A stretch of DNA of 64,000 nt from Candidatus Latescibacterota bacterium (GCA_965200315.1 OZ241362.1:2720001-2784000); one strand, 5' to 3'. Positions 3,413 through 31,241 are shown, counted from the first letter of the stretch. Program-made: numbers and translations. The notes: generated by a model from the letters alone, not told the origin.

Positions 3413-3429
3413 GGACGGTTCCCTTTAAG

Positions 3430-5063: not shown

Positions 5064-5097
5064 CCCCGTCCCTGACAGAGCAGAGACGGGGCATTTT
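5064..5097 (-). terminator. Possible intrinsic terminator/attenuating hairpin between pdxS and pdxT
   Basis: Inverted repeat CCCCGTC...GACGGGG followed by a T-rich tract on the minus strand. Confidence 0.45.
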
Positions 5098-5119
5098 CCG
5101 TTTGCATCTGTGCGGCGTC

Positions 5120-6031: not shown

Positions 6032-6174
6032 AGCGCAATCTCCTTTAGTTTCAATCCGCTCCCCGCCGAAACGAGGGGAGACTTATTCATTATCTGTTGC
6101 GCCGCTGCAGGATAACAGTGCCCTAAAAACATATTCCAAAACATCCCCCCACGCAATTTTTGCCGAGGGCAAAA

Positions 6175-7614: not shown

Positions 7615-7627
7615 AGGCTAGGTAGCT

Positions 7628-9529
7628 TTACGACGCTTCGACGCACGCTTTGGCGATGCGGCCCTGCTTGCCGAAGATATTGACCGCCCGCGCTTCGAGC
7701 AGGTTTTCGCCCTCGGCGAGCGTCCACTCAAAGCGAGCCTCGCGCTCCTCGCGCCACGGGCCGCCGTCTTGGCGCACCAAGAAGTGCGAGAAGTTGGGCG
7801 CGGTGTGCTCTAGATCGACTTGCAGCGTACGCGCCTTTTCCGCCACTTGGAGGTAGAGCCGCGTCTGGTTGACCGACCAGTAGAAGTCTCCGGTGCGAGA
7901 GGTCTGCAAGGAGTATTCGGCGTAGCGGGGATCGACGTCGTCCGACCACCACAGATAGCCATCCCAGTGGTACTGCCCAGCGCCGTGGCGCAGCTCGGCC
8001 GGCTCGGCGAAGATCAAGTGCGTGTTGCGCAGCGGAATGCCGAAGCGGCAGAAGACGTCGATATAGCTGGACATGGGCTCGACGACCTTTTGCGGCAGCT
8101 TGTTGGCCATGATTTTTTCGCGCCGTTCGTCGGCCGCGGCCTCGTGCAGCTCTAGGGCGTTGATGGGTACGCCGTCGATTTCGTAGGTGGCGTCGAATTC
8201 GCGGGTCGGCCCGGCGTCTTCGAGGATCCACTTTTGCAACTGTTCGCACCAGACCTCGGCCAAGCAGTGGTGATCGACGATGACCGAGCGGGCCACCCAC
8301 CCCAAAGACGAGGCGCAGCCGGCGAACACCGCCCCGTAGTGGGTACACATGCCGAAGCCCCAGTCGCCCTTGGTGGTGTCGAGGACTTCGAGGGGATTCC
8401 AAGAGGGGCAGTGGGGATATTTGTCGGATTGCCAGCCCAGCCATTGGCTGTGGACCCAGTCGCGCAAAAGGGCTAGCTGTTCGAGTTCGGTTTTGCCCGC
8501 GGCGATGACTTCGTCGAGGCGATACTGCTTGCGCAGCCGCTCTTGGTGCGGGTGCGGCCCCATGTAGGCGAAGGGGTACGAGCTGTACACGAGCTGGGGC
8601 TGGTCGAACTCTGCCCGCTGGAAGGGCGCGAGGCTTTGGGCGTCTTCCTCGATATCGGCTTCGAGCGTGACGGCTTGGAGGGTTGGGGTCTTGTTGGCCG
8701 CGCCGGTTTCGAGGATGGCGCGCCACTGCACGAAGCGCCCGGGCCACTGCAAGGCGGTGCATCGTTCCCAAGCCGTCCAAGTGCGCGGGTCAAAGGAAGG
8801 CGTCGGACCCGTGCGCAGCTCGAAGTGTATCTGGGTTTCCTGCGGCTGGCGCATCCGCGCCTTCAGGTGCAGGCGGCGAATGCCCATCCGCGGAGCAATG
8901 CGGCCATTGCCGTCTTCGTCGGCGAGGTCGATGACCGGCGAGCAGAGCGTCCCTTGGGGCGGATGTCCCTTGACGCGCAGCCTCACCAGATATTCGCCTT
9001 CAATGGCCCGGGCTTCGCCCAAGGTGCCTTGGTGCCAAGTCTTGCCGCCGTCAAAGCTACGGCTCGAACGGCTTGGGGGCGTGTCGGCTAGACCGCCTAG
9101 GAAGGGGTCAATGTGCAACACGCCGCTGTGCGAGAAGATGAATTCGTTGGTGCCTTCTTTGAGGTATTTGGCGGCGATTTTCTTGCGGTCCCAACCGCCA
9201 GTGAGCATGCGCTCGCGGTCTTGGCGGTGGGTGAGGACGTGGCCATTGACTTGGAGCCGCATGGGTTTGTCGGCGGTGGATTTGTCGGCGGTGGATTTGT
9301 CGGCGTTGACGTAAAAGAGCAGTTCGGCTCCTTTGGTCTTGGCCGAGGAGATGTCGAATTCGACCTTTGCGCAGAGAGCGGGAGAGAGTTCCTCGCAAAT
9401 GTCGCCGTCAACGCCCATTTCGTTGGTGAGCATATAGGTGGGGGCGAGACGGGCGGCGGGAGTGGTTTGGGCGTCGATGAAGCGGTCGCGGCGATAGTCG
9501 CGGAAGTCGGCGGTGGTGATGCGTTTCAT
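7628..9529 (-). CDS. Transglutaminase-like domain protein
   Basis: 633 aa. Cys-His-Asp-like triad: GMCTHYG, HCLAEVW, WILED. Confidence 0.65.
   Translation of the reverse strand: MKRITTADFRDYRRDRFIDAQTTPAARLAPTYMLTNEMGVDGDICEELSPALCAKVEFDISSAKTKGAELLFYVNADKSTADKSTADKPMRLQVNGHVLTHRQDRERMLTGGWDRKKIAAKYLKEGTNEFIFSHSGVLHIDPFLGGLADTPPSRSSRSFDGGKTWHQGTLGEARAIEGEYLVRLRVKGHPPQGTLCSPVIDLADEDGNGRIAPRMGIRRLHLKARMRQPQETQIHFELRTGPTPSFDPRTWTAWERCTALQWPGRFVQWRAILETGAANKTPTLQAVTLEADIEEDAQSLAPFQRAEFDQPQLVYSSYPFAYMGPHPHQERLRKQYRLDEVIAAGKTELEQLALLRDWVHSQWLGWQSDKYPHCPSWNPLEVLDTTKGDWGFGMCTHYGAVFAGCASSLGWVARSVIVDHHCLAEVWCEQLQKWILEDAGPTREFDATYEIDGVPINALELHEAAADERREKIMANKLPQKVVEPMSSYIDVFCRFGIPLRNTHLIFAEPAELRHGAGQYHWDGYLWWSDDVDPRYAEYSLQTSRTGDFYWSVNQTRLYLQVAEKARTLQVDLEHTAPNFSHFLVRQDGGPWREEREARFEWTLAEGENLLEARAVNIFGKQGRIAKACVEAS
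9262..9305. repeat. 15-bp in-frame tandem repeat (ADKST units)
   Basis: GGTGGATTTGTCGGC occurs twice plus a partial unit, encoding ADKSTADKSTADKP. Confidence 0.8.
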
Positions 9530-9760
9530 GGAAGGCTCCTGAGTGGGGGTCTAGGCGGGGAATGTAGGGGGTGAGTCGGGGTGGGGCAAACAAGACCTTA
9601 TGAGGGTCAAGAAAGGCTCTATATTTGGCCCTTGTCAACGACCAAGCAGCCCTTCCTGTCGGTTTGCTTACGGGACTCTTCTCAGAACTTCCGTCTTTTT
9701 CGCATTAATCGGCCTCGTTTTCTCGTCGCTGGCGGTGGCCCAGGCGTCGCCCTCGCCCAC

Positions 9761-9943
9761 CGCTATAGCAATCCTATCTCATTCGTGCGATGCGGCACCT
9801 CGCTGGGTGCGCGGGCGTCTCGCCCGCAGGCCAGCGGCCGGCCCCCCCAAGGACGCACACATGGACCACCAAGCACCGGCGGGGCCCAGGCGACGAGAGC
9901 ACAATCCGGCAAGCGGCGCAAGTCAGGTAGGCTTGCTATAGCG
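9761..9943. mobile_element. MITE with 16-bp terminal inverted repeats and an internal REP-like palindrome
   Basis: CGCTATAGCAATCCTA (9761-9776) vs TAGGCTTGCTATAGCG (9928-9943), 1 mismatch. Internal palindrome GCGGGCGTCTCGCCCGC at 9811-9827. Confidence 0.7.
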
Positions 9944-10653
9944 GCCATCAGAAGCACTTTTACCGCGCCCATCGGGCGGCTTGGCGGGTCGGTCGCGTCG
10001 CCTAAGCGCGTGGCGTATTTCGAGGGCATCCTGCCCTCGATACCGGGGGGTTGCGCCGGGGACTCGACCGAACCAGGTGCGCTCCTGCGCGCCGCGCCCG
10101 TCGTGTCGGATTGCTTAGCGTACATTTCTGCTTGCCGTTCGATTACGAGCAGTGGCGGCGCGATAACCCCCTCCCTGCTGGCAAGCGGCTAGCCGATTGG
10201 AACTGGAACGCAGGCGAACCGCGCACGGTGCGGATGATCTACTTCCTGCCCAACGACCGGCCGTATAGCACCGATGAATTGGCAGCATGCCGCGGATTGA
10301 ACGGCGAGAAAGAAGCAGTCGTCGAATTCGAGTATGACGTCTCGATTCCCCTTTTTCGTCGGGCTCCTGTACCTACAGTACATACCCTGTATGTCCGTGT
10401 AGTCGATTCGGATGGGGAGACGACCCAGGCGAGTCATACTATTCCCATCTCAATCGTCGCTGGCCAGTCGTTAAAAATGATGAACCACTATGATAGCATT
10501 AAGGAAGTCCGCACTATGCGCGAACAATTGGCGGCACAACACAGCTATAACGTTCGAGCCTTGTTTGCGGCAGCAAGAAAGCGAGCGGAAGGTCGTTAAA
10601 TTGGTGCCTAAGCCAGTGGAAGCCGTTTTAACTCCCTTTAGCTTCGCTATGAA

Positions 10654-10792
10654 ATGACCCGAGGCAGCGATAAGGTATTTGAGGATATCGGTTTTGAGCG
10701 GGAAGAAGCGGCGAGCCTAAAAGTCCGGGCTGATTTAATGCTCAACCTAAAAAAGTACATCGAAACTAGAGGATGGACCCAACTCAAGCCGC
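10654..10792 (+). pseudogene. XRE-family HTH antitoxin, 5' half
   Basis: MTRGSDKVFEDIGFEREEAASLKVRADLM...RGWTQ, then it switches to unrelated sequence. Confidence 0.65.
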
Positions 10793-11079
10793 CGCAGGCC
10801 GGCTATCACCGGCTCCATTGGGAGGGTCGCGACGACGCAGATCGTCCCAGCGGTGCTTACCTATAAGGCTAGTGGCGGACGAGGTCGTCTTGACGCGCAG
10901 CTCACCCTGCTGCGGTAGCTTGACAAGTTCTAAAATCTAGAGGAACTGTTAGGAGAATAACTGAGGTTACGCATTTGGCCGAAGAGTGGTCAGTGGTTAG
11001 AGGCTGGAAGTAAGCCCCGGCCACATTCCCGTTTTTCTCGTCGCACGGCAGGGGAATGTAGCGACACACGGAAAGCGCA

Positions 11080-15206: not shown

Positions 15207-15281
15207 TGGTGCTCCCACGGAGACTCGAACTCCGGTTACAGGGTTGAAAACCCTGGGTCCTAACCGCTAGACGATGGGAGC
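15207..15281 (-). tRNA. tRNA-Glu(TTC)
   Basis: GCTCCCATCGTCTAGCGGTTAGGACCCAGGGTTTTCAACCCTGTAACCGGAGTTCGAGTCTCCGTGGGAGCACCA folds as a cloverleaf with anticodon TTC, a T-loop GTTCGA and an encoded CCA. Confidence 0.96.
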
Positions 15282-18574: not shown

Positions 18575-18960
18575 GGGCGGCCGTCGAGTGGTTGTTGATG
18601 ATTCTGAAATATATTAAACTCTACCCGCCCAACCAGCACCCCATTTTTGCTTTGCCTCCTCCCATGTCCAGACGAACCTGATAAGGAGGAGACCGTTCTA
18701 GGGAGCGCACGAGATACTCACTCGGACCTATTTTATCTGGGCGGAGTCTGAAAAATTACAAGGTCGAGACGACTCCGCACGGGACCTGTTGCACGATGCG
18801 CTCGCACTGGAAGCGGCCGACCCACGTCTCTATGTCGCCGTTGGTCACAGATACTACGAACTACAAAATTTTTTGTAAAATCAAGGAATTATGCGATTCA
18901 AGTGCCAAGCTAACAGCTACGCCGCGATAAGATGATTAGGGATGAGACGCTTCGACTCAA

Positions 18961-21036
18961 ATGACAGTGAAGGAACGGATTAGAGAAGCACAGATGGAAC
19001 TTAGAAAAAGGAAAATGACTGCACAATTCTGGCGATCTAAAGGACTTAGCGTTCGTGCATCCAATTGTCTGTCAATGGCAAACATTATAGACGAACAAAA
19101 GCTAATCGAGAAAATTACAACTCTTGATTGTCTGCTTGCTCTCAGAAATTGTGGCAGACAAACAGCCGAAGAGGTCTGGACATTTATCACAAACTTAAAG
19201 TCTGCCCCCGACTACGATCGGGGACCAGAAGTTACATCATCCGATCCGAGCGATGAATATTTTACAGAATTGCAATCGATCTTCATCCCTCTCCTAAACA
19301 CAGAAATATCTGCCCATACATGGAAAGCTCTTCAAAAGATTCCGGTCAACAGTATCCGTTGGAGCGTTCGGACGCAAAATGTGATTAATTGGCAAAGGTT
19401 GCAATCACTTGCTGAGGTTGCCGAATTTTCACCGAGAAAATGGCTGAGTTTTAGAAATTTTGGAAGTACCTCTTTGACAGAACTCCAAGAGTGCGTGAGC
19501 GAAACAATTGAACAACTTCGATCTAATCCTGATATGCTTGATCCGGGTGATAGACATCTGGGACAAAAACCTAACCATTTTGTTAAAACGCAATCGGTCT
19601 TTATTCCCCTCCTAAACACAAGAGTATCTGCTCATACATGGAACACTCTTCAAAACAGTTCTATCCGTCAATTCACATGGAGTGTTCGGACACAAAATAT
19701 TCTCCTTAAGCAAGGCTTCAAAACGCTTGCGGAGATTGCCGAACTCTCTCCCCAAAAATGGCTCATATTTAGGAATTTCGGACGCAAATCTCTGATTGAA
19801 ATTCAGGAAACAGTAGATAAGGTCATAGCAAATCCTGATGTGCTTGATCCGAACAATGACCGTTCTAATGAATTACCGCAGATCCAGACACTTTCCGAAC
19901 TCGGTCGCGTGGTTTTTCAACGTCTGCAATCCCGCCAACAGGAGATTGTTAAGTACTACTATGGTTACGAGGAAATTCCTAAAAATTTACAGCAAATCGG
20001 CGAATTACTTGGAGTTAGCCGTGAGCGAGTCAGGCAAATTAAGCAGACAATCAATAATAAAATTAATCAAGGAGAGGACAATCACTTAATTACAACCACG
20101 ATCTTCTGTCTTTTGGGCAAATCTATCCACGATGTTCTAGCAAAGGATGGTGGGTTCTGTTCTGTCGAAAGCCTCCAAGAGATTATTCACCAGCAGTTGG
20201 GATTGGGAGATAACGAACAGTGGATTATCGACTGGTTTAATGAAGCATTCGGTGAGACGTGGATATACTTGGGGATAGACGAGTACAAAATTGTTGATGG
20301 TGTTTTTCTGCTAAAATCAGGAGACCCTGTTCAAAATTTTTTAGCACAACTTACTCTGAGACTCCAACGTTACGGTTATCGACCTTTGACATTGAAAGAA
20401 TGTCAACACCTCATTCAGAAAATGGATGGATCGATGTACGACTGCGACAGCAGTTCAATAGCTTTTGATTCAGATCAGTTGATCAACGTGATTACAAGCT
20501 ATCCTAGCTTAAAAGTCTATCAGTATGGAGAAACACTTATCGGGTCAAAGGCATGGACGTGGTTCAATCCTGAAAAGCCAACGACAGCGTCTCTCGTCGA
20601 ATGGTATCTCCGAGTGGTCAATGAACCCGCCACGGCAAAAGCAATTGCCAATGGAATATGGAGAAAACTTGGTAATTTTAGGTTGATGCCTTTTGATATT
20701 GCTGAAATCTGCGAAAAACAACCGTACCTCTTTCAAGTTGATGATAATGGTGCTTACGGTTTGAGCCTTTGGAAGGAAGCCACAAAAAACCAGCAAGTCC
20801 TCACAGAGTTGCTGTCAGATAAACCGTTACCTATTGAGCAGATTGCAGAAGTGTTATCCCTCAAGAATCTAGAAGAGACGACGCTGATTGTCGCAACCTT
20901 GAATTTTTATACAGATTCGTTTGTGGAAGTGATGCCTTTCGAGTGGGCATTAAAGCCACAGATGGACAGAATCGAGATGGAAACAGATTTTGATTATACC
21001 AATCTCACTTTTGAAGACTTGATGCCTAAATTATGA
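18961..21036 (+). CDS. Protein with three RNA polymerase alpha-CTD-like domains plus a sigma70 region-4 HTH
   Basis: LSVRASNCL...RNCGRQTAEEV, WSVRTQNV...RNFGSTSLTEL and WSVRTQNI...RNFGRKSLIEI match alpha-CTD. LQQIGELLGVSRERVRQI matches sigma70 r4. Confidence 0.8.
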   Translation: MTVKERIREAQMELRKRKMTAQFWRSKGLSVRASNCLSMANIIDEQKLIEKITTLDCLLALRNCGRQTAEEVWTFITNLKSAPDYDRGPEVTSSDPSDEYFTELQSIFIPLLNTEISAHTWKALQKIPVNSIRWSVRTQNVINWQRLQSLAEVAEFSPRKWLSFRNFGSTSLTELQECVSETIEQLRSNPDMLDPGDRHLGQKPNHFVKTQSVFIPLLNTRVSAHTWNTLQNSSIRQFTWSVRTQNILLKQGFKTLAEIAELSPQKWLIFRNFGRKSLIEIQETVDKVIANPDVLDPNNDRSNELPQIQTLSELGRVVFQRLQSRQQEIVKYYYGYEEIPKNLQQIGELLGVSRERVRQIKQTINNKINQGEDNHLITTTIFCLLGKSIHDVLAKDGGFCSVESLQEIIHQQLGLGDNEQWIIDWFNEAFGETWIYLGIDEYKIVDGVFLLKSGDPVQNFLAQLTLRLQRYGYRPLTLKECQHLIQKMDGSMYDCDSSSIAFDSDQLINVITSYPSLKVYQYGETLIGSKAWTWFNPEKPTTASLVEWYLRVVNEPATAKAIANGIWRKLGNFRLMPFDIAEICEKQPYLFQVDDNGAYGLSLWKEATKNQQVLTELLSDKPLPIEQIAEVLSLKNLEETTLIVATLNFYTDSFVEVMPFEWALKPQMDRIEMETDFDYTNLTFEDLMPKL
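19273..19851 (+). repeat. Internal tandem duplication of an alpha-CTD unit
   Basis: 19273-19545 and 19591-19851 are similar at DNA and protein level (QSxFIPLLNT...NPDxLDP). Confidence 0.8.
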
Positions 21037-22697
21037 AAGAGTTACATCGCATGATCTTGCCACAACACCAACAACCCATAACCGTTCGACTTGCGCGGAA
21101 AGAGGACATTGATGACGCGAAACGAATCGCAGACCAACATCGCTTGGAATTGGGGTTTGTCAGTATCGCTGTTTTACGGGCTGCACAAAGCAAAAGATGG
21201 CTACTTGTTGCTGCCGAATGGGAGGATAAGAGAAAATGTGATGTGGTCGTCGGATTTGCAAACTTTCGAATCAGACAGGACCGAAATGCAACTCTGTACG
21301 AAATCGCAGTAGCTGATACACATAGGTGCACAGGTGTCGGCACTCGCTTGCTGAGTGAATTAATTCGACGTGTTCACCTCGCCGGCGGGCAATATGTTCG
21401 CCTCAAATGCCCACAAGATCTGAGTGCCAATCAATTTTACCAAAAACGCGGATTTCGATATATAGAAACGGAGCAAGGCAAAAAGAGACGGCTCCAAGTA
21501 TGGTCCTACCGCATACCCTCAATGCACGGGGCAGACGTAGCAACTCTCCCGATTACCTCGTCTAGCTCTGTGGTTAGTAAGCAGGGTTCGCGGCGACTCA
21601 TCGGATGGGAGGGCGAATCCCTCACACCCGCGTATTTCTACGCCTCCCTGACTGTCAAACCAGATGAGATGAGGACATTGCACCGCCTCTGGCATAAACA
21701 TGCACACGACTTTGATTGGAAGTTCGGTAAACCGAATCCATTTCAACGAGTACTCATCTCTCCTGTCGTCGCTCACAAGTACACCTTTGATTTCGTCCGC
21801 GAACTGAAACGGACAGGTGAGACGGAAGTGGTCATGTTTGATTCTGGTGGCTATTTCGTCCAGAAAGGAGATATCTCTTATTACGACCTGCATCGAAAAC
21901 TCTATGACCGCTATCAGCAGGAGGATTGGGCGGATATCTACGTTCTTCCAGATAATCCACCACTTAGCAAAGATTCACTGAGTTCTGCGGAAGCAAAGAT
22001 AAAACAAACTGTTGAAGGCAGTCTGCTACTTCACGGGGACCTTCCTTACGCAATTCAGCAGAAAGCGATGCCTGTCGTTCACGCAACGAGAAGTGAACAT
22101 CTCGACTATTGCCTGCGACAATACACCAATTTTAAGAAAATCGGTTTCGGCTCATTTCCAACAAGCGGAAATTCAGACTCTATCAACCGATTGAACGTCG
22201 ACGCACTGCTAATTTTACAACAACTGACTCTGATGCTAGATTCTGAGGGTGTTAAACTACATACCTTTGGTATTTCAACACCACCTGCAATTTATCTGCT
22301 ATCATTAGCCGGTGTACATTCTTTTGACTCTAATGGTTGGATGCGGTCTGGTGGATATGGCAAGATATTTCTCCCATTTATGCGAGGTTATCTAGTTACT
22401 TTTAATTCTCGAAAAAATAAGAACTTGAATGAAGCAGAATTCAAATTATGGAAAGAAAATATAAAGCATGATTGTCCATTCTGCGGTTCTTTTGATCGGC
22501 TTTCAAATAATCGGTGGGATCGAATTATGCACAATCTGATAGTTATGTCAGAGTTAGAAACACATCAGAGGATACCCCAAACGGATATGTTACGAGAGCT
22601 ATCAGAAACGTACTATCGTATGTCGCAAAGCATACATAATAGGATAGGTGAAAGTTTTAACGGAGGATCTATTCTATGGCACGCTCGCACATTCTAA
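21033..22697 (+). CDS. GNAT acetyltransferase fused to a tRNA-guanine transglycosylase (TGT/DpdA-like) domain
   Basis: N-terminal GNAT: IAVADTHRCTGVGTRLL and ANQFYQKRGF. C-terminal TGT: FDSGGY, LPDNPP, PVVHA, HTFG, SFDS and a Zn-site-like HDCPFC...HNL. Confidence 0.8.
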   Translation: MKELHRMILPQHQQPITVRLARKEDIDDAKRIADQHRLELGFVSIAVLRAAQSKRWLLVAAEWEDKRKCDVVVGFANFRIRQDRNATLYEIAVADTHRCTGVGTRLLSELIRRVHLAGGQYVRLKCPQDLSANQFYQKRGFRYIETEQGKKRRLQVWSYRIPSMHGADVATLPITSSSSVVSKQGSRRLIGWEGESLTPAYFYASLTVKPDEMRTLHRLWHKHAHDFDWKFGKPNPFQRVLISPVVAHKYTFDFVRELKRTGETEVVMFDSGGYFVQKGDISYYDLHRKLYDRYQQEDWADIYVLPDNPPLSKDSLSSAEAKIKQTVEGSLLLHGDLPYAIQQKAMPVVHATRSEHLDYCLRQYTNFKKIGFGSFPTSGNSDSINRLNVDALLILQQLTLMLDSEGVKLHTFGISTPPAIYLLSLAGVHSFDSNGWMRSGGYGKIFLPFMRGYLVTFNSRKNKNLNEAEFKLWKENIKHDCPFCGSFDRLSNNRWDRIMHNLIVMSELETHQRIPQTDMLRELSETYYRMSQSIHNRIGESFNGGSILWHARTF

Positions 22698-23518
22698 AAG
22701 GGTTTTCGGATTTGGAGTCGGCGTTGTGGGTCCACAAATACCACCCTGGCCTTACAACAATCCGCCAAATGGTCAAAAAGGCTCTGGAAAATGGATACTC
22801 CGTAACTGATACAGCACGTTATGAAGCTGTTCAGCTATTAAGCGAATGGGGATTCGCAGATGGAAAAAGTAGGTCACTAACCCTCGAAGGCGAAGTATTT
22901 TACTACCTGTGGGAAACAAAACGAAGCACCGCGATTGATTTTCTGCACGCACGGCAATATAGTCTATGGGCACAAAGAGCCCCAGATCAAAACATTGCGT
23001 CGTGGGCGTACAAAAATATCTGTGACTACCTGTGGACACAGCAAACGCTTCCGGATAGAGATCAGGATCTAGTGGCTTACATCAATGACCTTCGAACTTC
23101 CGACAAAAATGTGATTCCGCCAGCAAATATAGGCAATGCGTTTTCCAATAAGTCGATCAATGACGCTTATGATTGGCTCCTGCCGCTGGAACCACCTGTT
23201 TTAGTGAACGGCGAGGTCGACGGTAAGGCACTTAAGGACGCTACATTTTCACAACGAGCATTTTGCTCAACACCGCTTTTTGTGATGGCACTCGGTTATA
23301 TTGTGCGAGAATCTGACACAACATTTGGGGATTTAGTCAAAATTGACTACACGCGAAAACAAGCCGCTTGTCGCTTCTGTCTGATCAACGAAACTGGCTT
23401 CGATCTCATGCTCGACGAGGCGTTACGCCAAGTTTCGTACCTGTCAGTACAGAGAGATTGGGACGGAGTTTATATAGTGTTAAATCAAATACCGGAGATT
23501 AGGGATTTTATTAATTGA
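22676..23518 (+). CDS. Hypothetical protein, putative winged-helix (DUF4007/BrxA-like)
   Basis: 280 aa. The LLSEWGF..LTLEG..DFLH..SWAY pattern resembles DUF4007/SspB wHTH proteins. Its operon position also fits. Confidence 0.4.
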   Translation: MARSHILKGFSDLESALWVHKYHPGLTTIRQMVKKALENGYSVTDTARYEAVQLLSEWGFADGKSRSLTLEGEVFYYLWETKRSTAIDFLHARQYSLWAQRAPDQNIASWAYKNICDYLWTQQTLPDRDQDLVAYINDLRTSDKNVIPPANIGNAFSNKSINDAYDWLLPLEPPVLVNGEVDGKALKDATFSQRAFCSTPLFVMALGYIVRESDTTFGDLVKIDYTRKQAACRFCLINETGFDLMLDEALRQVSYLSVQRDWDGVYIVLNQIPEIRDFIN

Positions 23519-24009
23519 AAGGATTAAAATTGAATACACAGGTTTTGAGTGTATATGCGGATACGTCCGTTTTTGGTGGCGCATTCGATGAAGAGTTTCG
23601 TCAAGCCAGTCAGTCCTTTTTCGATATGGTTCGCCATGGACATTTTAACCTGTTGACATCAGTAGTGGTGCAAGAGGAGATCGAGTCTGCCCCTGCGGAA
23701 GTTGTAACACACTTTGAACAGATGCTCAACTTTGCAGAAATTGTAGAGATTTCTGAGAAGGTTTTACAACTCCAACAGGCTTACTTAAATGCGAAAATTG
23801 TGCCTGAAAAATGGGCAGCGGATGCTCTCCATGTTGCCTTAGCCACTGTAGGAGGCTGCTCGATGATTGTAAGTTGGAATTTCAAACATATCGTGCATTT
23901 TTCAAAAATTCCGCTATACAATGCGGTAAACACACTTTCTGGATACTCAAATATCGCGATCCATTCCCCTCAGGAGGCGATCAACTATGAAAACGAAGAA
24001 GACGTTTGA
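23515..24009 (+). CDS. PIN-domain (VapC-like) ribonuclease toxin
   Basis: VYADTSVFGG, VVQEEI and DALHVALAT...IVSWNFKHIV motifs. Confidence 0.85.
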   Translation: MKGLKLNTQVLSVYADTSVFGGAFDEEFRQASQSFFDMVRHGHFNLLTSVVVQEEIESAPAEVVTHFEQMLNFAEIVEISEKVLQLQQAYLNAKIVPEKWAADALHVALATVGGCSMIVSWNFKHIVHFSKIPLYNAVNTLSGYSNIAIHSPQEAINYENEEDV

Positions 24010-24166
24010 TTGCGTTGAGATGAAACGTCGTGGCGCAGAACGAATCTACAATCAAATCGCAAGCATGACGCTCAGAGAACAACTAGCTTTCTGGGAAGAA
24101 CGTACCGAGTTGCTGCGAAAGCATCAGAAAACGATAAAAGTGAGACGCAAAATATCTGTGAGTTGA
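23987..24166 (+). CDS. Small putative antitoxin partner of the PIN protein (59 aa, not in ORF track)
   Basis: SD CAGGAGG, then MKTKKTFDCVEMKRRGAERIYNQIASMTLREQLAFW... It overlaps both neighbours. Confidence 0.7.
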   Translation: MKTKKTFDCVEMKRRGAERIYNQIASMTLREQLAFWEERTELLRKHQKTIKVRRKISVS

Positions 24167-24705
24167 ACCCGATGCTCTGGCAATCTTATCATCGAAAACT
24201 TCTCGCGTTAGCCGAAACTAGTGAGACTTTGACGACCTCTCAGCAGGAGGTCTGTCAATTTTTGCGGCAGGAAATCGGAGACTATCAGCAACGTATCAAC
24301 CTTTGGGGACTCCCGGGGGTTGGTAAAACATTTCTCGCTCACTATTTTCACCACTATGCAGATGGTCTCTATTTTTCATCTACGGAGAGTTCTCTAATCA
24401 CAGAAGTTTCCCCAAAGTCAGTGGTTATCATTGATAACGCACCATCTGACCGGAGTTTGGCGCGGTCGATCTTCGGGGAGATGCTTTGGGCTAGTGCGTC
24501 GTCGGTAATTTTGGTGACGTGTCAACCAATTGATGATGCGGTTCAGAGGATTGAGTTAGATCTGACAGATAGAGATATGGCACAAGTTGAGGGCGTAATG
24601 CGTAAACTTTTCGCCTATTCGCCAGTTGATAAGGTGGACAATTTTGAACGCCACCGCTCGGGGATTTGGGGACAACTCAAAGCTATGGCAGAACACGCCA
24701 TATAA
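24163..24705 (+). CDS. Small P-loop NTPase (BrxB/BrxF-like)
   Basis: 180 aa. Walker A GLPGVGKT and Walker B VVIIDNA. Confidence 0.65.
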   Translation: MNPMLWQSYHRKLLALAETSETLTTSQQEVCQFLRQEIGDYQQRINLWGLPGVGKTFLAHYFHHYADGLYFSSTESSLITEVSPKSVVIIDNAPSDRSLARSIFGEMLWASASSVILVTCQPIDDAVQRIELDLTDRDMAQVEGVMRKLFAYSPVDKVDNFERHRSGIWGQLKAMAEHAI

Positions 24706-24753
24706 GATAAGACATAATCAGGCTGCGGCTTGAGCAAAGAGAGGAGATAACAC

Positions 24754-27700
24754 ATGGCTTTGGACGAGATTATTCAGAAAAATGTTGTGGTTGACACGCC
24801 TAGTGCTTCAGACCTCGCGGCGAGACCAGATGAATGGGCCAATCGTTTTCAATTTCACGTCTCAACGCACGTCGCGATTGCCGATATGACCGATAAGTGG
24901 GATGCAATTCTCAAAAATATCCTGCGAGGGCGTTCAGCAACCGGTCTCATTCATGCCGATACAGGATACGGCAAGACCTCAACAGCAGCCTCATTCTGGC
25001 ATTATGCGGAACAACGGAAAATTGTCACAGTTCCACCTTTCGCCTGGAATAGCATCGCCGACATGCTTATCGCAACTCATGGATGGGTCTGTCATCGTTT
25101 AAAGATGAAGAGGCCAGATCTAATTGCCGATCTAGAACAGCAGTATAAGACGCTAATTGAAAGAAGCGACGAAGACCGTGCCCGCAGAACCAGTCAAGAA
25201 GAAGATATTCCGCTCGATCATACCAGACGGGTTGTTCAGTCGCTCAAAGCGAAAGGTGATATAACTGATTCCATCTCCGCGAACCGCCTCATTGACTACC
25301 TACGGAAGGCAACAGCAACGCTTCTTGAGGCAGATTACAAAGGATTGCTTATTCTGCCGGATGAATTCGAGCTTTTTGCCAATACGAATCCAGACATCGC
25401 TAAGAACTTTGCTGAACTCAAGGATTTTATCTTCCCGATTTTTCAAGAAGCGAATCTTCCAATCGGCTGTGTTGTTCTGACCTATCGCCGAACTTTTTCG
25501 GAGATCCAACTCAGAGAACCTTACATATTTGCACGCTTCAACAAGCCTGAAGGAAGTTTGATTGATCTCGAGCAAGCGTATGGAAAAATTGAAAACGATA
25601 GGTCTTTTGCCCACGACCTTTGGGAAAAATTGTCCATTCAGTGCAATCTATCCACCGAGGAACAAAAGGCGATTGATCAGGATGTGCTATTTGCCCTCGG
25701 ACAGTTTTTGGGACACCAACGCACAACACAACTCATTAGTGGCCCCCGATCGGTTGTTGCGACATTCCGGCGAGCTGCCATTCGCTACACTGAGACGCAA
25801 CAGACGTATTCAATTTTCGATTTTTGCGAAGATTATATCTCTCAGGGAATTATCTGCTTCAATAACCAAGAAACCGATGCAGTCAAATCTCATACCTCAA
25901 TCATGAGCCAACCTATTATCGGTGCTGACGAAGCAAAGCAGAAGTTGGTTAAGCTCCTGTGCGTCTGTCCAGATGGCGTACCAGAAGTACTTTTCAAGAA
26001 GAACGATATTTCCGATAAAGACCGCTTGGCAGTTGTGGAGGGATTATTAGGGACACATGTTATTACAAAAATTGTCGGACCAACATTGATCCACTATAAA
26101 GATGATTTACAATCAGGTGATGCACTCATTGAGCTTCTCAAAGTTCTTCGGAATCAGTACAATCCCGCAAGCGCAGAAACACATCGCGCTGCAGTCAGGT
26201 CATTTGCGAATTTCATTCTACCCGAAATCTTCTCACAGACTATTGGAGCATCCTTTACGGGTTGGGGAGGATTAAAAAAGATGGAAGGGGATATCGAACC
26301 GACCTATCAGGCCGCGCTGTCAGGGACATCGATCCGAGATTATCCAGATCGGACACTGACTGTACATGTTGGCACTGAGGATTTCCAAGAGATTAGCGGT
26401 CCCTATCGTGAAAGTCAGTTGTTCGCCTCTTTTATTTTTTTGACTCAGCCCGGTGATACCACAAATACATGTGATGTTGACAAAGATGGTCTCTATTTTC
26501 AACTCAACATATCCGAAGCGATCGACAGACAAGAAATTCCAAGAGATATTGGCAAACTCGGCGATCTCTTTCTGCCGGAATCTGTTACCCCTTCGCTACT
26601 CTTGTCGATGCTTGACTTCTTTGAGAAAGAAACGACTATCGACCAGATGAAGGAGTTAAAACAGGAAGCGCAAGTGCAACTCTTGAAATCCCGAATTTAT
26701 GACCAATTGATCAGTTATTTCTTCTCCACTGAGGTCAAGGAGAGTGCCGTATCACAGCAGGCAGATTTAGCACAAGTCCCAGCGGGAAAAAGTTTTGCCG
26801 AACGGGCTTTAGGTGTACTGATGCGGAAAAAGTTTAAATCATATCGTGCCGTCGCAATCTCTCATCAGTGGCAAAAAAATTTGAGGCTCTACATACAGAC
26901 CCTGAGAGACGCTGAAAGCCTCGGTGTGAAACGGGGCGAGGAACCTATCAAAATGATTGGCAGAGATGTGCCGGGGAGGTTCAATGTTGGTCAGCATACC
27001 ACTTTCTCTAATACCTTCTATCCAGACGGTATTTTGCGTGACCTTTTGCTCGTTAATGAACTTGACGTCAATGGTAGAACTGTAGCAGAAAGTGTTGAAG
27101 TTAAAAACAATCAGGGTCCCGTTGCTGTCTATTTCAAACGCCACGACATGGAAGAGCGCATTTTGAAGACGCTTGAGGAAAGCACGGAAAGCATCGTTAT
27201 TGATGGCAAGCATACCAAAGCAATGAAATGCCATGAAATTTTCCAGCAGGAAGCGAGTCTTGGCTATCTCAATGATGAAATTGAGGAGTTAATCAAAGTA
27301 TTGAAAGCAAGGGGATTGGTTGATCAAAAACAGTACCAAGGGATTGATTATCTATATCGTGTTGAAACAGAAATCAATTTTGCCGAACTGCAACGCAAGA
27401 TCGAACGACTTGAGGAACTGGAGGCACTGGCGAGTTCAAAAGGCTTTACTCCGGAAAGGGAAGAAGATAACTCGTTATCATCGGCTCAGGCAGATTTTCA
27501 GACAATCGGAATTGAGTCCGATGAAGTTCGCAAAGATTCATTACGGCAAAAACTCAATGCGATTGAGGACGCTTTCTCAACGCAGTGTGGGGGATGGCTG
27601 AACACCGAAATGAAACGAGCCGATCAAAAACGCTATGAAATTGAGCCGTTGCGCCTTGATGTTCCAACAGTACTTGATGAAATGACGGGACACCCATTGA

Positions 27701-28836
27701 CAGAGTTTTCGACGCTCCTGTTTAATGATATTCGCAGTGAGGTCAAAAAGGCGTACACAATGCTCTCTGGTCAGGTTTCCGCTTTACAGAATGAAGTCAA
27801 GAATACACTGAACGAAAAGCTCCAGAGCTACAAGGCGGATAGCAGTCCTGAAAAAGCAATTGATGTTGCGGCACAACTGCGGGTCTTCTGCGATGTGATT
27901 GACACAAAAATCAATGGATTGCGAACTTCCGGGAAAGAAGCAGAGCAACTTTACACGTCTTTTGAAAAATGGCGAACGCTTACCAGACAGATCGAAAGCA
28001 ATCGCTTGACGATGAGCGAAGCCCAAGCCAGTGACGCCCTCGACAATCTTATTGATCGATTAGACAATGAACAGCAACAGATCAAAAAACATCTCGCCAA
28101 CCGAGCATTAAGACTGAGCCAAGTGCTTGAAAATCATGAACACTTCACCAAACGATTTACAGAAATCAAGGAGGAATACAACCAGATTACCGAAAATCGA
28201 AAAGATGAGTTTATTGAGTTCCAAGGGATGATTGAAACAGAACTCGTCAAATTGCTTGACACGCCGCATATCGGAGAACCCTACAATCCGTCAGACGAAG
28301 ATGGTGCTTATCGCCGTGTCCGCGAGAAAGCAGTTGAAAAAATTCGTGAATCTTTTATCAAACGCGCAATTCAAAGAATTGCAGCAATGAAAAACGAGTT
28401 GATGAAACCAATAGAGGTTTTCGACGTCGAGCCCAATGTCAAAAACGATGCTATAGATTTGAAGAAAAAGGTCTCAGCATTAGAAATTCAAATTAGTCGA
28501 ATCGATCAGGAACTACAACCGAAAGAGATTGAAGAACAATTGCCCGATTTTGTTCAGTCCTTACTTACAATGAGAGAAGAAAGCACAGAGTTGATGAATC
28601 AATGGGGAAGTATTCAAGGTCAGCTAAGACGTGACAAAAATGAGTTGAGTCATAGGGCGAGAGTACTGTTGGACTTGGTTGAAACAAACACAGACAAAGA
28701 TTTCACAGAACTGATTATTGCTCTCAGGCAGCCTGAAAACAAAATGTTTAGTTCGACGACGGAGATTATTGAAAGCCTCGAAGAATTATACCAATATAAT
28801 TGGCTGAACATCAAAGTCTCACGCACAACATCATAA
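24754..28836 (+). CDS. Large P-loop ATPase with coiled-coil C-terminus (BrxC/PglY-like)
   Basis: 1360 aa. Walker A ADTGYGKT, Walker B LLILPDEFE and a long helical C-terminal half. Directly upstream of the PglZ-like gene. SD GAGGAG. Confidence 0.7.
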   Translation: MALDEIIQKNVVVDTPSASDLAARPDEWANRFQFHVSTHVAIADMTDKWDAILKNILRGRSATGLIHADTGYGKTSTAASFWHYAEQRKIVTVPPFAWNSIADMLIATHGWVCHRLKMKRPDLIADLEQQYKTLIERSDEDRARRTSQEEDIPLDHTRRVVQSLKAKGDITDSISANRLIDYLRKATATLLEADYKGLLILPDEFELFANTNPDIAKNFAELKDFIFPIFQEANLPIGCVVLTYRRTFSEIQLREPYIFARFNKPEGSLIDLEQAYGKIENDRSFAHDLWEKLSIQCNLSTEEQKAIDQDVLFALGQFLGHQRTTQLISGPRSVVATFRRAAIRYTETQQTYSIFDFCEDYISQGIICFNNQETDAVKSHTSIMSQPIIGADEAKQKLVKLLCVCPDGVPEVLFKKNDISDKDRLAVVEGLLGTHVITKIVGPTLIHYKDDLQSGDALIELLKVLRNQYNPASAETHRAAVRSFANFILPEIFSQTIGASFTGWGGLKKMEGDIEPTYQAALSGTSIRDYPDRTLTVHVGTEDFQEISGPYRESQLFASFIFLTQPGDTTNTCDVDKDGLYFQLNISEAIDRQEIPRDIGKLGDLFLPESVTPSLLLSMLDFFEKETTIDQMKELKQEAQVQLLKSRIYDQLISYFFSTEVKESAVSQQADLAQVPAGKSFAERALGVLMRKKFKSYRAVAISHQWQKNLRLYIQTLRDAESLGVKRGEEPIKMIGRDVPGRFNVGQHTTFSNTFYPDGILRDLLLVNELDVNGRTVAESVEVKNNQGPVAVYFKRHDMEERILKTLEESTESIVIDGKHTKAMKCHEIFQQEASLGYLNDEIEELIKVLKARGLVDQKQYQGIDYLYRVETEINFAELQRKIERLEELEALASSKGFTPEREEDNSLSSAQADFQTIGIESDEVRKDSLRQKLNAIEDAFSTQCGGWLNTEMKRADQKRYEIEPLRLDVPTVLDEMTGHPLTEFSTLLFNDIRSEVKKAYTMLSGQVSALQNEVKNTLNEKLQSYKADSSPEKAIDVAAQLRVFCDVIDTKINGLRTSGKEAEQLYTSFEKWRTLTRQIESNRLTMSEAQASDALDNLIDRLDNEQQQIKKHLANRALRLSQVLENHEHFTKRFTEIKEEYNQITENRKDEFIEFQGMIETELVKLLDTPHIGEPYNPSDEDGAYRRVREKAVEKIRESFIKRAIQRIAAMKNELMKPIEVFDVEPNVKNDAIDLKKKVSALEIQISRIDQELQPKEIEEQLPDFVQSLLTMREESTELMNQWGSIQGQLRRDKNELSHRARVLLDLVETNTDKDFTELIIALRQPENKMFSSTTEIIESLEELYQYNWLNIKVSRTTS

Positions 28837-29984
28837 ATAAAGCGAGGCGTGAGTTGGATGGGTTAATTAAATCTCTAAAGAGATCCCCGTGTCTGATAAC
28901 TTTGCCAAAGAAAACGCAGGGACTGTGGGATATATGCCTGTCTGGTATTTGGCAGCCTATTTCGTTATCAGAGTGGAGAGGTGTTATTGATGCGCCATGG
29001 GAAGTTCCTACACAAGCGACACTTTTTGTGAATCTTCCAGAGGCTGAAAGCAAAGAGTTAACAGAAATTTTCGGTTTCCCCACGATTGATCTCCCTGTGG
29101 TTCCCCCAATCGAATGGGTGAATCAGAAACTGCCCGATCATTTTAGTGCCTTATGCACAAGCGAATCAAAGCTCTTAAAACAGTCGCAACTCGTCCAGAT
29201 CATTACAGACCGCGTATCATACATGCTTCCCGACATCGTGATTTTTCTGGTACTCGATGGTCTATCATTGTATGATGTCACAGACTGGATATTCCCGGAG
29301 TCTTGGCGCGTAGTGTGTGAGCCATGTCTTGTTGATGGACTAAGCATCACATCAAGCGGCATGCGTCGGTTAATCGGGTCACCACCCTTAACACATCGAT
29401 TGTTTGCGTTAGGATATGTACAGCGACTTGGATTTTCGTATTGGGAACGCTCCCAAAATCAGCTTACCAATGTACTCTTTTCCGAATTTCCACCGAGTCA
29501 AATGTTTCGCTTCACAACCTTTGAAGAGATTTTAAATAGATTACAGAATACGGACTTACCCAACCGAACGTTCATCCAAATCGTCCGCACAGGACTCGAC
29601 GGGGTCTGCCACAGTCATAGAGAAAAACCAAATATAGACGCGATGCTTAGTCAACTTAAATTGGATATTGAACAAATTTCTGAGACAGTTAGTTCATCTC
29701 AGAAAACCGTGCGAGTTTTTATAACTAGCGACCATGGAATTCTTTGGTTCACAGAACAAAAAGTGACGCCATTTAAATCGGGTAGTGCTTCCGCTCGTTA
29801 TACTTATGCGAAATCTTCACCTGATGTGTCAAGAATCACTATTGCTGAATCTGGAGAGACGTTTACAGTTTTAATAGGTGATGAAATCATCGCTAGAAAC
29901 CGGAAGGGGACGGAATGGGGATTTCACGGTGGAATTTCTGCACGAGAATCTTTCGTTCCGTTATTTGATATTACTCCTAAATGA
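28800..29984 (+). CDS. PglZ-domain (alkaline phosphatase superfamily) protein
   Basis: FLVLDGLS, FITSDHG and FHGGISARESFVP are the characteristic PglZ motifs. Confidence 0.8.
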   Translation: MAEHQSLTHNIINKARRELDGLIKSLKRSPCLITLPKKTQGLWDICLSGIWQPISLSEWRGVIDAPWEVPTQATLFVNLPEAESKELTEIFGFPTIDLPVVPPIEWVNQKLPDHFSALCTSESKLLKQSQLVQIITDRVSYMLPDIVIFLVLDGLSLYDVTDWIFPESWRVVCEPCLVDGLSITSSGMRRLIGSPPLTHRLFALGYVQRLGFSYWERSQNQLTNVLFSEFPPSQMFRFTTFEEILNRLQNTDLPNRTFIQIVRTGLDGVCHSHREKPNIDAMLSQLKLDIEQISETVSSSQKTVRVFITSDHGILWFTEQKVTPFKSGSASARYTYAKSSPDVSRITIAESGETFTVLIGDEIIARNRKGTEWGFHGGISARESFVPLFDITPK

Positions 29985-29987
29985 TAG

Positions 29988-31205
29988 GTGGTTCAAATGG
30001 CAGAGGTCAACTTGCGAATCGGCACGGAACACGAAAGCGGCGAATTGATCTATATGAATGCAACAGGATCACGTGCCGTCTTCATCTGCGGCAAGCGCGG
30101 TTCTGGCAAAAGCTATACGATGGGCGTCATCGTCGAAGAGCTATTCAACCAAGAACAAGACGAGGCAACAATTATCATCGCCGATCCAATGGGAATTTAC
30201 CACACGATGGCTTTGCCGAACCAAACCCAAGCAGATGAAGTTCTTCATGCCGGATTCCTTACTAGCGGCTTTCCAGTTCGGCTCATTGTCCCTGGCAATC
30301 CTTTGATTCGGTACGGCGATGCGGTGGTACTTGCGAAGCTGCGAGAGAACGGTGTCGAAGTTGTTCCACTCCAAATTAACGCCGCAGATATCTCGCCCGA
30401 GGCGTGGTGTGAACTATTTGACATTGGCATGAACGAAGTGATGGGGATTGTTTTGGGGAGAGCAGTTGATACACTTCTCGAAAAAGACCAGCATTTTATT
30501 ATTGATGACATCCTTGAGACAATCGATAGAGACCCAAGAGCGAAAGACACCTCTAAAGAAGCTCTGGAAAACCGTTTAATGGCGGCGAATAGGTGGGGTA
30601 TCTTTGCAGAAGAACCCACCTCATTGAATAATGTGTTTCTCTTGAACCATATCAATGTTTTAGACCTAAGTGTGATTGATGCGGGTACAAAAGGACTGCG
30701 TAACATGGTACTTGACGTTGTCTCCCGCCGTCTTTTCTCTGAACGAACCCGAGAAAGACGTAGAGAAGAATTTGGTTTGTCAACGAAGCTACCGCGGGTT
30801 TGGCTGGCGATTGACGAAGCTCATCAATTTGTGCCGAAAGGACGAACCTCGCTCTGTAAGGAAATGCTCATTCGTTGGGTGAAAGAGGGACGTCAACCCG
30901 GTCTCAGCCTCGTCGTAGCGACGCAACAGCCGGCCGCGATTGATCCTGAACTGTTATCACAATGCGACGTCATTATTGCTCACAAAATTACGACTTGGGA
31001 TGATATCAATGCACTTGACCGACTGAGTGCAACGTACATGGCGGGAAACTTAAAAGGATACATTCGCAACTTAAACCGCAGAGGTGAGGCTCTATTAGTT
31101 GATGATGAAACCGAGTCTGTTACGACAATTCGAGTCCGCCCGCGATTTAGTTCGCACGGCGGTGCCGAAATTCAAGAAAAGACTGTGCGAAAATTTTTAT
31201 TTTAG
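29988..31205 (+). CDS. HerA/FtsK-like (DUF87) ATPase
   Basis: GKRGSGKS, IADPMG, IDEAHQF and EGRQPGLSLVVATQQP motifs. It lacks an N-terminal HAS barrel. Confidence 0.85.
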   Translation: MVQMAEVNLRIGTEHESGELIYMNATGSRAVFICGKRGSGKSYTMGVIVEELFNQEQDEATIIIADPMGIYHTMALPNQTQADEVLHAGFLTSGFPVRLIVPGNPLIRYGDAVVLAKLRENGVEVVPLQINAADISPEAWCELFDIGMNEVMGIVLGRAVDTLLEKDQHFIIDDILETIDRDPRAKDTSKEALENRLMAANRWGIFAEEPTSLNNVFLLNHINVLDLSVIDAGTKGLRNMVLDVVSRRLFSERTRERRREEFGLSTKLPRVWLAIDEAHQFVPKGRTSLCKEMLIRWVKEGRQPGLSLVVATQQPAAIDPELLSQCDVIIAHKITTWDDINALDRLSATYMAGNLKGYIRNLNRRGEALLVDDETESVTTIRVRPRFSSHGGAEIQEKTVRKFLF

Positions 31206-31241
31206 CGTCTAACTCACGCCCCCATCCCCGAGAGGTTTTCC

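Follow-up and report, generated by a model that had tools for sequence, protein, structure and literature searches.

How might a cell tell its own DNA from that of an invader when an operon resembling the bacteriophage exclusion (BREX) systems carries, in the place of a methyltransferase, an enzyme of the transglycosylase type? This question is raised by nine genes, p1 to p9, in a 64,000-nucleotide (nt) stretch of the genome of Candidatus Latescibacterota bacterium (GCA_965200315.1 OZ241362.1:2720001-2784000; hereafter, the window), in which a GNAT domain fused to a TGT domain (p2) is encoded together with a large ATPase, a PglZ-like protein and a HerA-like ATPase. The reading that we favour, and regard as probable with moderate confidence, is that the locus belongs to the family named ‘BREX-Related Capture’ (BRC), in the form in which GNAT and TGT are fused, that it is carried by a 12.6-kb accessory island and that it acts through the mechanism of marking and capture proposed below. 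Judged by its predicted components, the locus belongs to a system that has been defined by computation, with features going beyond the published description.

BRC was defined in a purely computational study (PMC12839542; NAR, 27 January 2026; preprint 10.1101/2025.10.09.681413). Its parts are a short PglZ, for which an N-terminal ‘inactive Swi2/Snf2’ domain is named, a DUF6079-type ORC/Cdc6 ATPase with four BrxC domains, an active STAND NTPase as the counterpart of BrxB, a tripartite DUF4007-like DNA binder (one HTH and two wHTH domains) as the counterpart of BrxA, a HerA/FtsK protein closest to DndH, and the GNAT and TGT proteins, ‘occasionally fused’ (PMC12839542). The labels given to the proteins of p3 and p6 type rest on modelled folds; in the study, which gives a list of 45 taxa, HerA is universal, GNAT and TGT occur in a subset of the systems, no DpdB or DpdC is reported, and GNAT and TGT are proposed to mark the host DNA (PMC12839542). 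A first-pass annotation of the window, made from the sequence, had presented the combination as undescribed; this has to be given up, since the BRC description covers seven of the nine genes and makes the same proposal of self-marking by GNAT and TGT.

Conservation of the gene block and exchange of its modules

The GNAT-TGT family comprised 137 clusters at E ≤ 0.001 among 8000 candidates scored. An alignment of 17 of its members was used for a genome scan that yielded 64 loci (65 with the window; numbers preceded by L designate single loci), whose gene content was scored by tblastn and iterated hidden Markov models (HMMs). Seven genes, namely p1, p2, p3, p6, p7, p8 and p9, are syntenic across phyla. 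In the 64 loci anchored on the TGT gene, p3 is found in 62, p7 in 61, p6 in 34, and p8 and p9 in 30; TGT (with GNAT), p3 and p7 are thus a near-constant trio. The gene order of the window is kept in the clade of its own type (L001-L008 and L018) and in Poribacteria p6 is located after p7; the record titles of the loci name Latescibacterota, Poribacteria, Gemmatimonadetes, Anaerolineae, Caldilineaceae, Promineifilum, Ardenticatenaceae and Methanosarcina. The TGT was the sole query by which these loci were retrieved, and the recurrence of the order in 30 of the 64 puts the arrangement far beyond chance. The reverse scan, performed on metagenome contigs with an alignment of the PglZ-like protein, gave 59 loci, and the TGT gene is present in 20 of the 21 that extend at least 6.4 kb upstream. 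The synteny of TGT, PglZ, BrxC-like and HerA genes, which the first-pass annotation had proposed to look for, is encountered from both sides.

The exception in the reverse scan is L155, in which the genes for a PRTase-CE protein (PF24390, 83 bits; 3883-4998, + strand) and an AAA_16 ATPase (2602-3876, + strand) are located upstream of the P-loop, ATPase, PglZ and HerA genes; a phosphoribosyltransferase (PRTase) appears to stand there in the place of the TGT.

Outside the near-constant trio, modules of the block can be exchanged. In 22-26 of the 64 TGT-anchored loci the PglZ, HerA and P-loop genes are absent and a different conserved set of three is found instead, encoding a protein of ~570 amino acids (aa; 26 loci), one of ~450 aa (24 loci) and a DEAD/Helicase_C/MZB helicase of ~1,880 aa (22 loci); the loci that bear it include L027, L030, L042, L052, L053, L055, L057, L058, L062 and L064. 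The helicase of L062 matches the Protein Data Bank (PDB) chain 9wae_A with E 3e-166 and the DruE of E. coli (9tu7) with E 6e-35, and in a literature search no paper linking DruE or Druantia with a transglycosylase or a GNAT was found. In one locus, L020 (13141-16254), the small P-loop gene of the PglZ/HerA type is found together with the ~570-aa, ~450-aa and helicase genes, and p7 is absent; L020 is perhaps a hybrid, or else a rearranged system.

In the window, the exact coordinates and the base composition agree with the earlier description of nine co-oriented open reading frames (ORFs) with overlapping or nearly abutting ends in an AT-richer island (Table 1). Six of the junctions overlap by 4-37 nt, one is a 3-nt gap and the widest gap measures 48 nt (24705 to 24754), and the GC content per 1-kb bin is 0.41-0.49 across 19001-31000 against 0.57-0.66 in the bins on either side. 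It had also been noted that no methyltransferase and no PAPS reductase is visible, and indeed neither kind of family was matched in the nine ORFs by Pfam, NCBIfam or PADLOC.

Table 1. Coordinates of the operon, of the island that carries it and of one helicase-type locus used as an example (window positions, except for L062, whose positions are those of its own record)
Feature	Position	Strand	Description
p1	18961-21036	+	691 aa; three alphaCTD-like repeats, sigma-70 region-4 HTH (aa 319-363), then C-terminal 310 aa outside these domains
p2	21033-22697	+	554 aa; GNAT (aa ~12-151) and divergent TGT-like domain (aa ~195-510) in one fused protein
p3	22676-23518	+	280 aa; family without Pfam coverage; putative DNA-binding partner of the TGT
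p4	23515-24009	+	164 aa; PIN-domain RNase; local insert, accessory or toxin-like module
p5	23987-24166	+	59-aa ORF; variable accessory
p6	24163-24705	+	180 aa; small P-loop NTPase, candidate for the ‘STAND NTPase’ slot of BRC
p7	24754-28836	+	1360 aa; N-terminal P-loop ATPase and long C-terminal coiled coil; BrxC-like
p8	28800-29984	+	394 aa; short PglZ-type protein of predicted alkaline-phosphatase fold, putative phosphodiesterase/nuclease effector
p9	29988-31205	+	405 aa; HerA/FtsK-type ATPase, putative DNA translocase
Whole accessory island	18583-31220		12.6-kb indel between the 601-aa gene (- strand, start 18574) and the aconitase gene (31242)
Non-coding leader	18583-18960	+	within the indel, upstream of p1; no + strand ORF of at least 50 aa
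L062 trio	1126-6789, 6792-8138, 8141-9850	-	example of a helicase-type locus

The scans for expression signals were uninformative: 30 promoter-like sites were counted, mostly on the - strand, against 19.9 +/- 4.5 in shuffled sequences, and terminator-like sites were at shuffle level. Contigs from RNA libraries (runs X5 and X6) span the island; these do not establish its transcription, because one contig of 9.3 kb also crosses the neighbour on the opposite strand and DNA may be present in the library. Run X7 covers the island in patches.

The GNAT-TGT protein and the proposed DNA mark

In p2, Pfam matches GNAT with E 2.9e-11 and TGT with E 0.0032, and the ‘TGT’ model was the sole PADLOC match (E 4.4e-4). 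The assignment is clearer in the family, as PF01702 (TGT) matches 8 of 10 p2 homologues at E ≤ 0.01, six of them above the cut-off. The invariant residues of p2 are D270-S-G-G, D307 (in L-P-D), G371-F-G-S-F, D432-S (in F-D-S), H479-x-C481-x-x-C484 and H500; the TGT domain thus keeps the catalytic and zinc motifs of the superfamily. When a profile of the TGT part was compared with the PDB, the sole enzymes matched were the archaeosine TGT (ArcTGT), DpdA (7ui4_A) and the bacterial TGT, with DpdA (E 0.017) scoring no better than the archaeosine TGT (E 0.0038).

A GNAT is nearly always at hand. It is fused to the TGT in 39 of 64 TGT-anchored and 4 of 59 PglZ-anchored loci, and is encoded by a separate gene, upstream or downstream, in 18 of 64 and 14 of 59, the remainder being partial or cut by contig ends; fused or neighbouring, it accompanies this TGT in 57/64 loci. 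In the mechanism that we propose, the TGT domain would exchange guanine in the DNA of its own cell for a 7-deazaguanine supplied by the queuosine pathway of the host (preQ0 or preQ1), and the GNAT domain would acylate this 7-deazaguanine, the aminomethyl nitrogen of preQ1 being the simplest point of attachment. Should the model hold, the near-obligatory presence of the GNAT would point to an acylated 7-deazaguanine that is new to the DNA of cells. Phage DNA is known to contain N-formyl and N-methyl dPreQ1; the source that describes them nowhere uses the word ‘acetyl’ (10.1101/2023.04.13.536721).

The source genome has the genes for such a supply, namely a canonical Tgt (544.8 bits), two copies of QueC, QueD and QueF. 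The QueC copies lie outside the window (C1:1872553-1873164 and C1:3216619-3217227; 205 and 193 bits), the first of them within an open frame of 385 aa at ~7 kb from the QueF gene. A 7-deazaguanine mark is further supported by the plasmid of Haloplanus sp. HW8-1 (NZ_CP098519.1, L106), the sole locus seen with a deazaguanine pathway of its own: queC, queE and queD (8887-10908) are immediately upstream of the system, a 132-aa QueF-like gene (21329-21727, 62 bits) directly follows the GNAT gene, and the set TGT-p3-AAA-BrxC-like-PglZ-like-HerA is otherwise identical to that of the window. A related pair was found in the Thermocrinis Great Boiling Spring virus (BK013347.1, L104, 3953-5130): next to the genes of its sliding clamp, helicase and DNA polymerase, the virus encodes a GNAT and, with 35% identity to p2, a GNAT/TGT-like protein. 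The annotation of this 41-kb record includes no que genes. Against a general link to the queuosine pathway, QueC was not found in two of five carrier genomes, both of which have a canonical Tgt and may salvage precursors.

The same enzyme could be read as a weapon, which would remove or exchange bases (7-deazaguanines or guanines) in the incoming DNA, leaving the host unmarked and the HerA, PglZ and ATPase proteins to process the damage. We hold this to be unlikely, even if some observations are on its side. Outside the Haloplanus plasmid, linkage of que genes to the system is very rare, a single one of 123 loci having such a gene within 10 kb (L045, QueC ~9 kb away); and the PRTase-CE protein and AAA ATPase in the TGT slot of L155 imply that this slot can hold another enzyme handling bases or ribose. 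Against a weapon stand the viral GNAT and TGT pair, whose position among replication genes fits the protection of the virus's own DNA, and the preQ0 pathway and QueF-like gene of the Haloplanus plasmid, which suit the stoichiometric marking of a genome. Moreover, the known TGTs that act on DNA (DpdA) are marking enzymes (PMC12839542; 10.1101/2023.04.13.536721).

The other components, the island and its chromosomal site

The domains that the first-pass annotation had called, namely alphaCTD/sigma-r4, GNAT-TGT, PIN, P-loop NTPase, ATPase, PglZ and HerA, agree with the family scans, weakly in the cases of TGT, PglZ, the P-loop NTPase and the large ATPase. Its ‘wHTH-like’ label for p3 fared less well: the length of 280 aa stands, and the fold is left with very weak matches, to PF24409 (E ~0.01 in 2 of 22 relatives) and to DtxR-type HTH (E ~1). 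p3 itself has no family match in the Pfam, NCBIfam and PADLOC scans; its family counts 248 clusters, in the best 120 of which no Pfam domain was found, and Pfam DUF4007 matched 0 of 22 relatives. A true Pfam DUF4007 gene exists elsewhere in the source genome (C1:4310224-4311111, L079, 289 bits), as in 45 of the 168 genomes of the phylum, and probably belongs to an Ssp or type 4 BREX-like system.

p6 has a weak AAA_16 match in Pfam, and 35 aligned sequences conserve a Walker A motif (G-x-P-G-x-G-K55-T) and D91-N, the Asp after strand 3. In p7, AAA_16 is again weak and BrxC_BrxD faint; the N-terminal part contains the P-loop G71-x-G73-K74-T75 and D203-E204, and the C-terminal ~450 aa (positions 848-1275) match SMC and other coiled-coil chains of the PDB. 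BrxC_BrxD weakly matches 8 of 22 p7 relatives, and the Haloplanus homologue reaches 27.3 bits on it, above the cut-off, and is annotated at NCBI as a BREX ATP-binding protein. In hhalign, p7 scored 47.5% (E 1.9e-4) against the DUF6079 alignment, over the N-terminal 270 aa alone. Taken together, these matches suggest a moderate link of p7 to BrxC.

p8 is weakly but consistently predicted to be a short protein of PglZ type. NCBIfam matches it with BREX_PglZ_2 (E 8.3e-6) and BREX_PglZ_4 (E 6.1e-5) and PADLOC with PglZ (E 7.6e-4 and 1.5e-3), and all its family matches are to PglZ except for a faint one to Pfam Phosphodiest (E 0.0084). It aligns to just the last 90-130 residues of PglZ profiles of 741-910 positions; its invariant motifs in 15 sequences (D153-G-L, T184, G265-x-D267-x-x-x-H271, D311-H-G and H376-G-G) are of the alkaline-phosphatase type, and its best PDB profile matches are PorX (E 0.014) and the PglZ chain 9zn5_B (E 0.3). 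p9, with Walker A K41, matches DUF87 in Pfam (E 1.2e-17), HerA (5.4e-24), mad8 (6.3e-22, over nearly the full length) and DndH (3.1e-7) in PADLOC, and HerA chains in the PDB (best E 1.4e-14), and is thus predicted to be a HerA/FtsK translocase related to the C-terminal domain of DndH; it is 88-93% identical in L001-L007 and L018. The Methanosarcina genome has a second HerA-like gene (38% identity) with no other components of the system nearby, and when p9 was searched for in 401 genomes sampled from the phylum to which L036 belongs, the seed alone was recovered.

The operon is headed by p1, in which Pfam finds RNA_pol_A_CTD in three stretches (E 1.7e-27) and Sigma70_r4 (E 3.8e-10); weak matches were obtained with positions 800-988 of PglW (PADLOC, E 1.1e-5) and with MzaA. 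The PglW of type 2 BREX contains an alphaCTD-like domain followed by wHTHs (PMC12839542), and the weak PglW match of p1 falls on this stretch. In 13 loci a p1-type gene immediately precedes the TGT gene, the window type being present in L001-L008 and L018; in L029, L031, L036, L046 and L051 the protein encoded there has sigma region 2 and/or 4, mostly with alphaCTD, and in 13 loci of Poribacteria type an ORF of ~86 aa with a single alphaCTD is found in the same place, ~230 nt upstream of the TGT gene. Close relatives have between one and four alphaCTD repeats. Within p1, two pairs of direct nt repeats (19259-19337/19577-19655, 80% identical, spaced by 318 nt; 19501-19545/19807-19851, 73% identical, spaced by 306 nt) indicate that the alphaCTD unit was recently duplicated in tandem. 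Pfam HARE-HTH occurs in the proteins encoded upstream in L031 and L046 and, in L053, in a fusion protein encoded on the opposite strand; in window-type p1 it is not found at E ≤ 10 (two window fragments and full-length L001, L002, L004, L007 and L018), nor in L029 of Chloroflexota type. A first iterated HMM had reported p1-like genes in 52 of 64 loci; this count was dropped, as alignment and single-segment searches revealed domain hopping through the shared alphaCTD/sigma-r4 module. Belonging to a different family, the ~570-aa protein encoded in the helicase-type loci was likewise rejected as a relative of p1. The alphaCTD/sigma gene is an addition to the seven published BRC components and a conserved part of the operon in this clade, as a putative regulator or sensor.

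The two remaining ORFs are of another kind. The PIN domain of p4 (Pfam PIN_3, E 7.4e-8) is present in 2/65 loci, the window and L006 alone, and the 59-aa ORF p5, for which no meaningful family match was obtained in the family scans, in 5/65 by tblastn, the window and L003-L006, of which L003-L005 are without the PIN gene. Because of these counts both are local inserts, not a conserved part, which corrects the first-pass annotation.

The whole block is an insertion/deletion polymorphism at one fixed chromosomal site. In alignments with the empty sites of genomes of the same genus, homology stops at ~18582 and restarts at ~31222. In run X2, one contig joins 18582 to 31220, skipping 12,637 nt, and a second carries the island without any difference; the depths of the island and joined-flank contigs are similar (22.8 and 24.7), hence both alleles occur in one sample and the island is polymorphic within one sampled population. 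Four related records (L001, L002, L003 and L005) have the same system flanked by the same 601-aa gene on one side and by aconitase on the other. The 5' end of the aconitase gene was searched in 31 genomes of the genus and matched in 27 besides the source genome: HerA abuts aconitase in three and a 25-aa remnant of it does so in one, the 601-aa gene is 90-292 nt from aconitase in 17, which are empty sites, it is 1,084 nt away in one and it is absent from the fetched 1.5 kb in five. The remnant, in L131 of the same genus, is the C-terminus of HerA (88% identical), beside aconitase and ~1.1 kb from the 601-aa gene, and looks like a scar of island loss. Of the 168 genomes of the phylum, 10 have the GNAT-TGT gene; within the genus 5 of 31 have it, the source genome included. 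At the shared site, protein identity is 92-96% for the 601-aa and aconitase flanks and 85-92% for a 524-aa gene further out, against 60-69% for p1, 66-81% for p6 and 68-76% for p7 within the island, where HerA (p9) reaches 91-93%; such a contrast is typical of accessory conflict loci that evolve fast. At the island ends no noteworthy repeats, direct or inverted, were found, and no integrase, transposase, replication or conjugation family was matched among the nine ORFs in Pfam and NCBIfam. The sole tRNA gene of the window, tRNA-Glu (ttc) at 15207-15281 (- strand), is 3.3 kb from the island and not at its border.

A site of this sort might also be a defence hotspot in which independent neighbours have come together, namely a Dpd-like marking pair, an ATPase with PglZ as in BREX, a HerA module and a toxin-antitoxin pair with PIN. 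The independence of the PIN gene and of the 59-aa ORF (2 and 5 of 65 loci), the exchangeability of modules implied by the swap of the PglZ/HerA/P-loop trio for the helicase trio in 22-26 sister loci, and the 6 of 27 relatives in which other content or a larger gap separates the 601-aa gene from aconitase are all in line with such a mosaic. We nevertheless consider it quite improbable, given that 30 loci of several phyla and one archaeon retain the seven genes in the same order and with overlapping ends, that the TGT is present in 20/21 informative PglZ-anchored loci and that gain or loss affects the entire block together. Very improbable is a non-immune role, as the DNA-handling or transcription module of a mobile element or as a tRNA-modification operon with a dedicated sigma-like regulator: the RNA-polymerase-type domains of p1, the classical status of TGTs as tRNA enzymes and the plasmid location of some relatives would accord with it, and it is opposed by the lack of mobile-element families in the nine ORFs and of repeats at the flanks, by the canonical Tgt already encoded in the genome, and by the PglZ, HerA/mad8/DndH-like and BrxC-like matches, which are all to defence families.

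Weighing the assignment and comparison with known systems

In the BRC reading, the steps that follow the marking would be the following. p3 and the coiled-coil BrxC-like p7 would bring the enzyme to the DNA and read the mark; unmarked incoming DNA would be held and threaded by the HerA-like motor p9, with the small P-loop NTPase p6 as a switch, and would be nicked or cut, once captured, by the PglZ-like phosphoesterase p8. p1 may control the operon or sense the takeover of RNA polymerase, and the PIN RNase p4 may be a lineage-specific back-up or an insert of toxin-antitoxin type. In its outline, a BREX-like core with a TGT as marker, an acylating GNAT and HerA as motor, this agrees with the guess of the first-pass annotation, which is in accord with the tests made and had already been published.

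Several results weigh against the assignment, in addition to the scarcity of linked que genes and of QueC discussed above. The TGT match of the window protein is below threshold (17 bits against a cut-off of 26.3), and all PglZ scores of p8 are below the curated cut-offs (24.3 bits against 200). With hhalign, p3 gave 2.9% against DUF4007 and 1.1% against BrxA, and p6 gave 0.5% against BrxB; Pfam BrxA (PF08849) and BrxB (PF08747) have no match in the source genome at E ≤ 1e-5. Pfam DUF6079 (PF19557) matches 0 of 22 p7 relatives and nothing in the source genome at E ≤ 10, and among the best 120 p7 homologues PF19557 occurs in none and PF10923 (BrxC_BrxD) in three; no chain named BrxC was matched by the p7 profile in the PDB. 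At the level of sequence, the link of the locus to BREX is thin. By prediction, the locus has the same seven kinds of components as BRC, and its identity with BRC rests on this match of components and not on shared accessions, the main text of the BRC study giving no accession for the system; moreover, the literature search found no other relevant paper on a ‘BRC system’ in this sense.

A further possibility, which we put forward tentatively and hold to be less likely than its opposite, is that the GNAT-TGT writes a base unseen in nature (an N-acylated 7-deazaguanine, e.g., 7-(acetylamino)methyl-7-deazaguanine), and that TGT, p3, p7 and the sigma-alphaCTD protein form a portable ‘mark and read’ cassette that is mounted on at least two killing modules, PglZ with HerA and the DruE-like trio, with a PRTase able to replace the TGT. 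If the proposed mechanism is true, it would be an immunity resembling restriction-modification in which self is a swapped guanine, instead of methylation or phosphorothioation, and the exchange of killing modules around a constant marking cassette, if true, would be a second example of the Dnd/Ssp design. A direct test of the chemistry is possible in growable carriers, namely Chloroflexus islandicus isl-2 and, with the system on plasmids, Oscillatoria nigro-viridis PCC 7112 and Haloplanus sp. HW8-1.

Among the known systems, canonical BREX (types 1-4) shares with the locus a multi-gene operon on an accessory island, in which a large ATPase (here with a weak BrxC/D signature) adjoins a protein of the PglZ family. 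It differs in that no PglX/BrxX methyltransferase and no BrxP PAPS reductase was matched in the nine ORFs, that the PglZ of the locus has 394 aa, that BrxA and BrxB are undetectable by sequence and that HerA is found instead of BrxL or BrxH. The Dpd system (DpdA-K; dPreQ0/dADG in DNA) is similar in having a TGT-superfamily enzyme in a restriction-modification-like island, with the match to DpdA 7ui4_A, and a dependence of the locus on the queuosine precursor pathway, as in Dpd, is plausible. However, no DpdB (ParB-like), DpdC (DUF328) or DpdD-K helicase or nuclease families are present among the nine ORFs, the PADLOC matches of helicase type being the HerA ones of p9 alone, and the TGT of the locus is very divergent and nearly always accompanied by a GNAT.

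The module of SspABCD and type 4 BREX consists of a PAPS reductase, DUF4007 and a BrxC/SspC-type ATPase (PMC12839542), and the locus keeps the succession of a DNA-modifying enzyme, a protein of ~280 aa and a large P-loop ATPase, with a variable restriction part. Its chemistry would be base exchange, not phosphorothioation, and p3 is unlike DUF4007 (2.9%). With DndFGH, the HerA ‘capture’ systems and MAD7-MAD8 of MADS, the locus shares a HerA motor beside a nuclease-like partner, as p9 matches HerA, mad8 and DndH. Nonetheless, no other Mad or Dnd match was obtained, and the partner is of PglZ type and not a MAD7 or DndF/G-type nuclease; of the eight mad genes of MADS, which include a methyltransferase, a kinase and MAD3/MAD4, mad8 is the sole one matched, by p9, and the other eight ORFs have no mad match at E ≤ 10.

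The closest relative remains BRC, from which the locus differs in the following respects: an alphaCTD/sigma-type gene heads its operon, and the main text of the BRC study names none; HerA is universal in that study, whereas from the side of the TGT the opposite modularity is also seen, 22-26 of 64 loci being without PglZ and HerA; and Pfam DUF6079 and DUF4007, to which its description refers, fail to match the lineage of the locus. In return, the ~280-aa p3 would occupy the BrxA/DUF4007 slot by size and position, DpdB and DpdC are lacking in both, the distribution is equally sparse and wide, Archaea included, and the same role in self-marking is proposed for GNAT and TGT.

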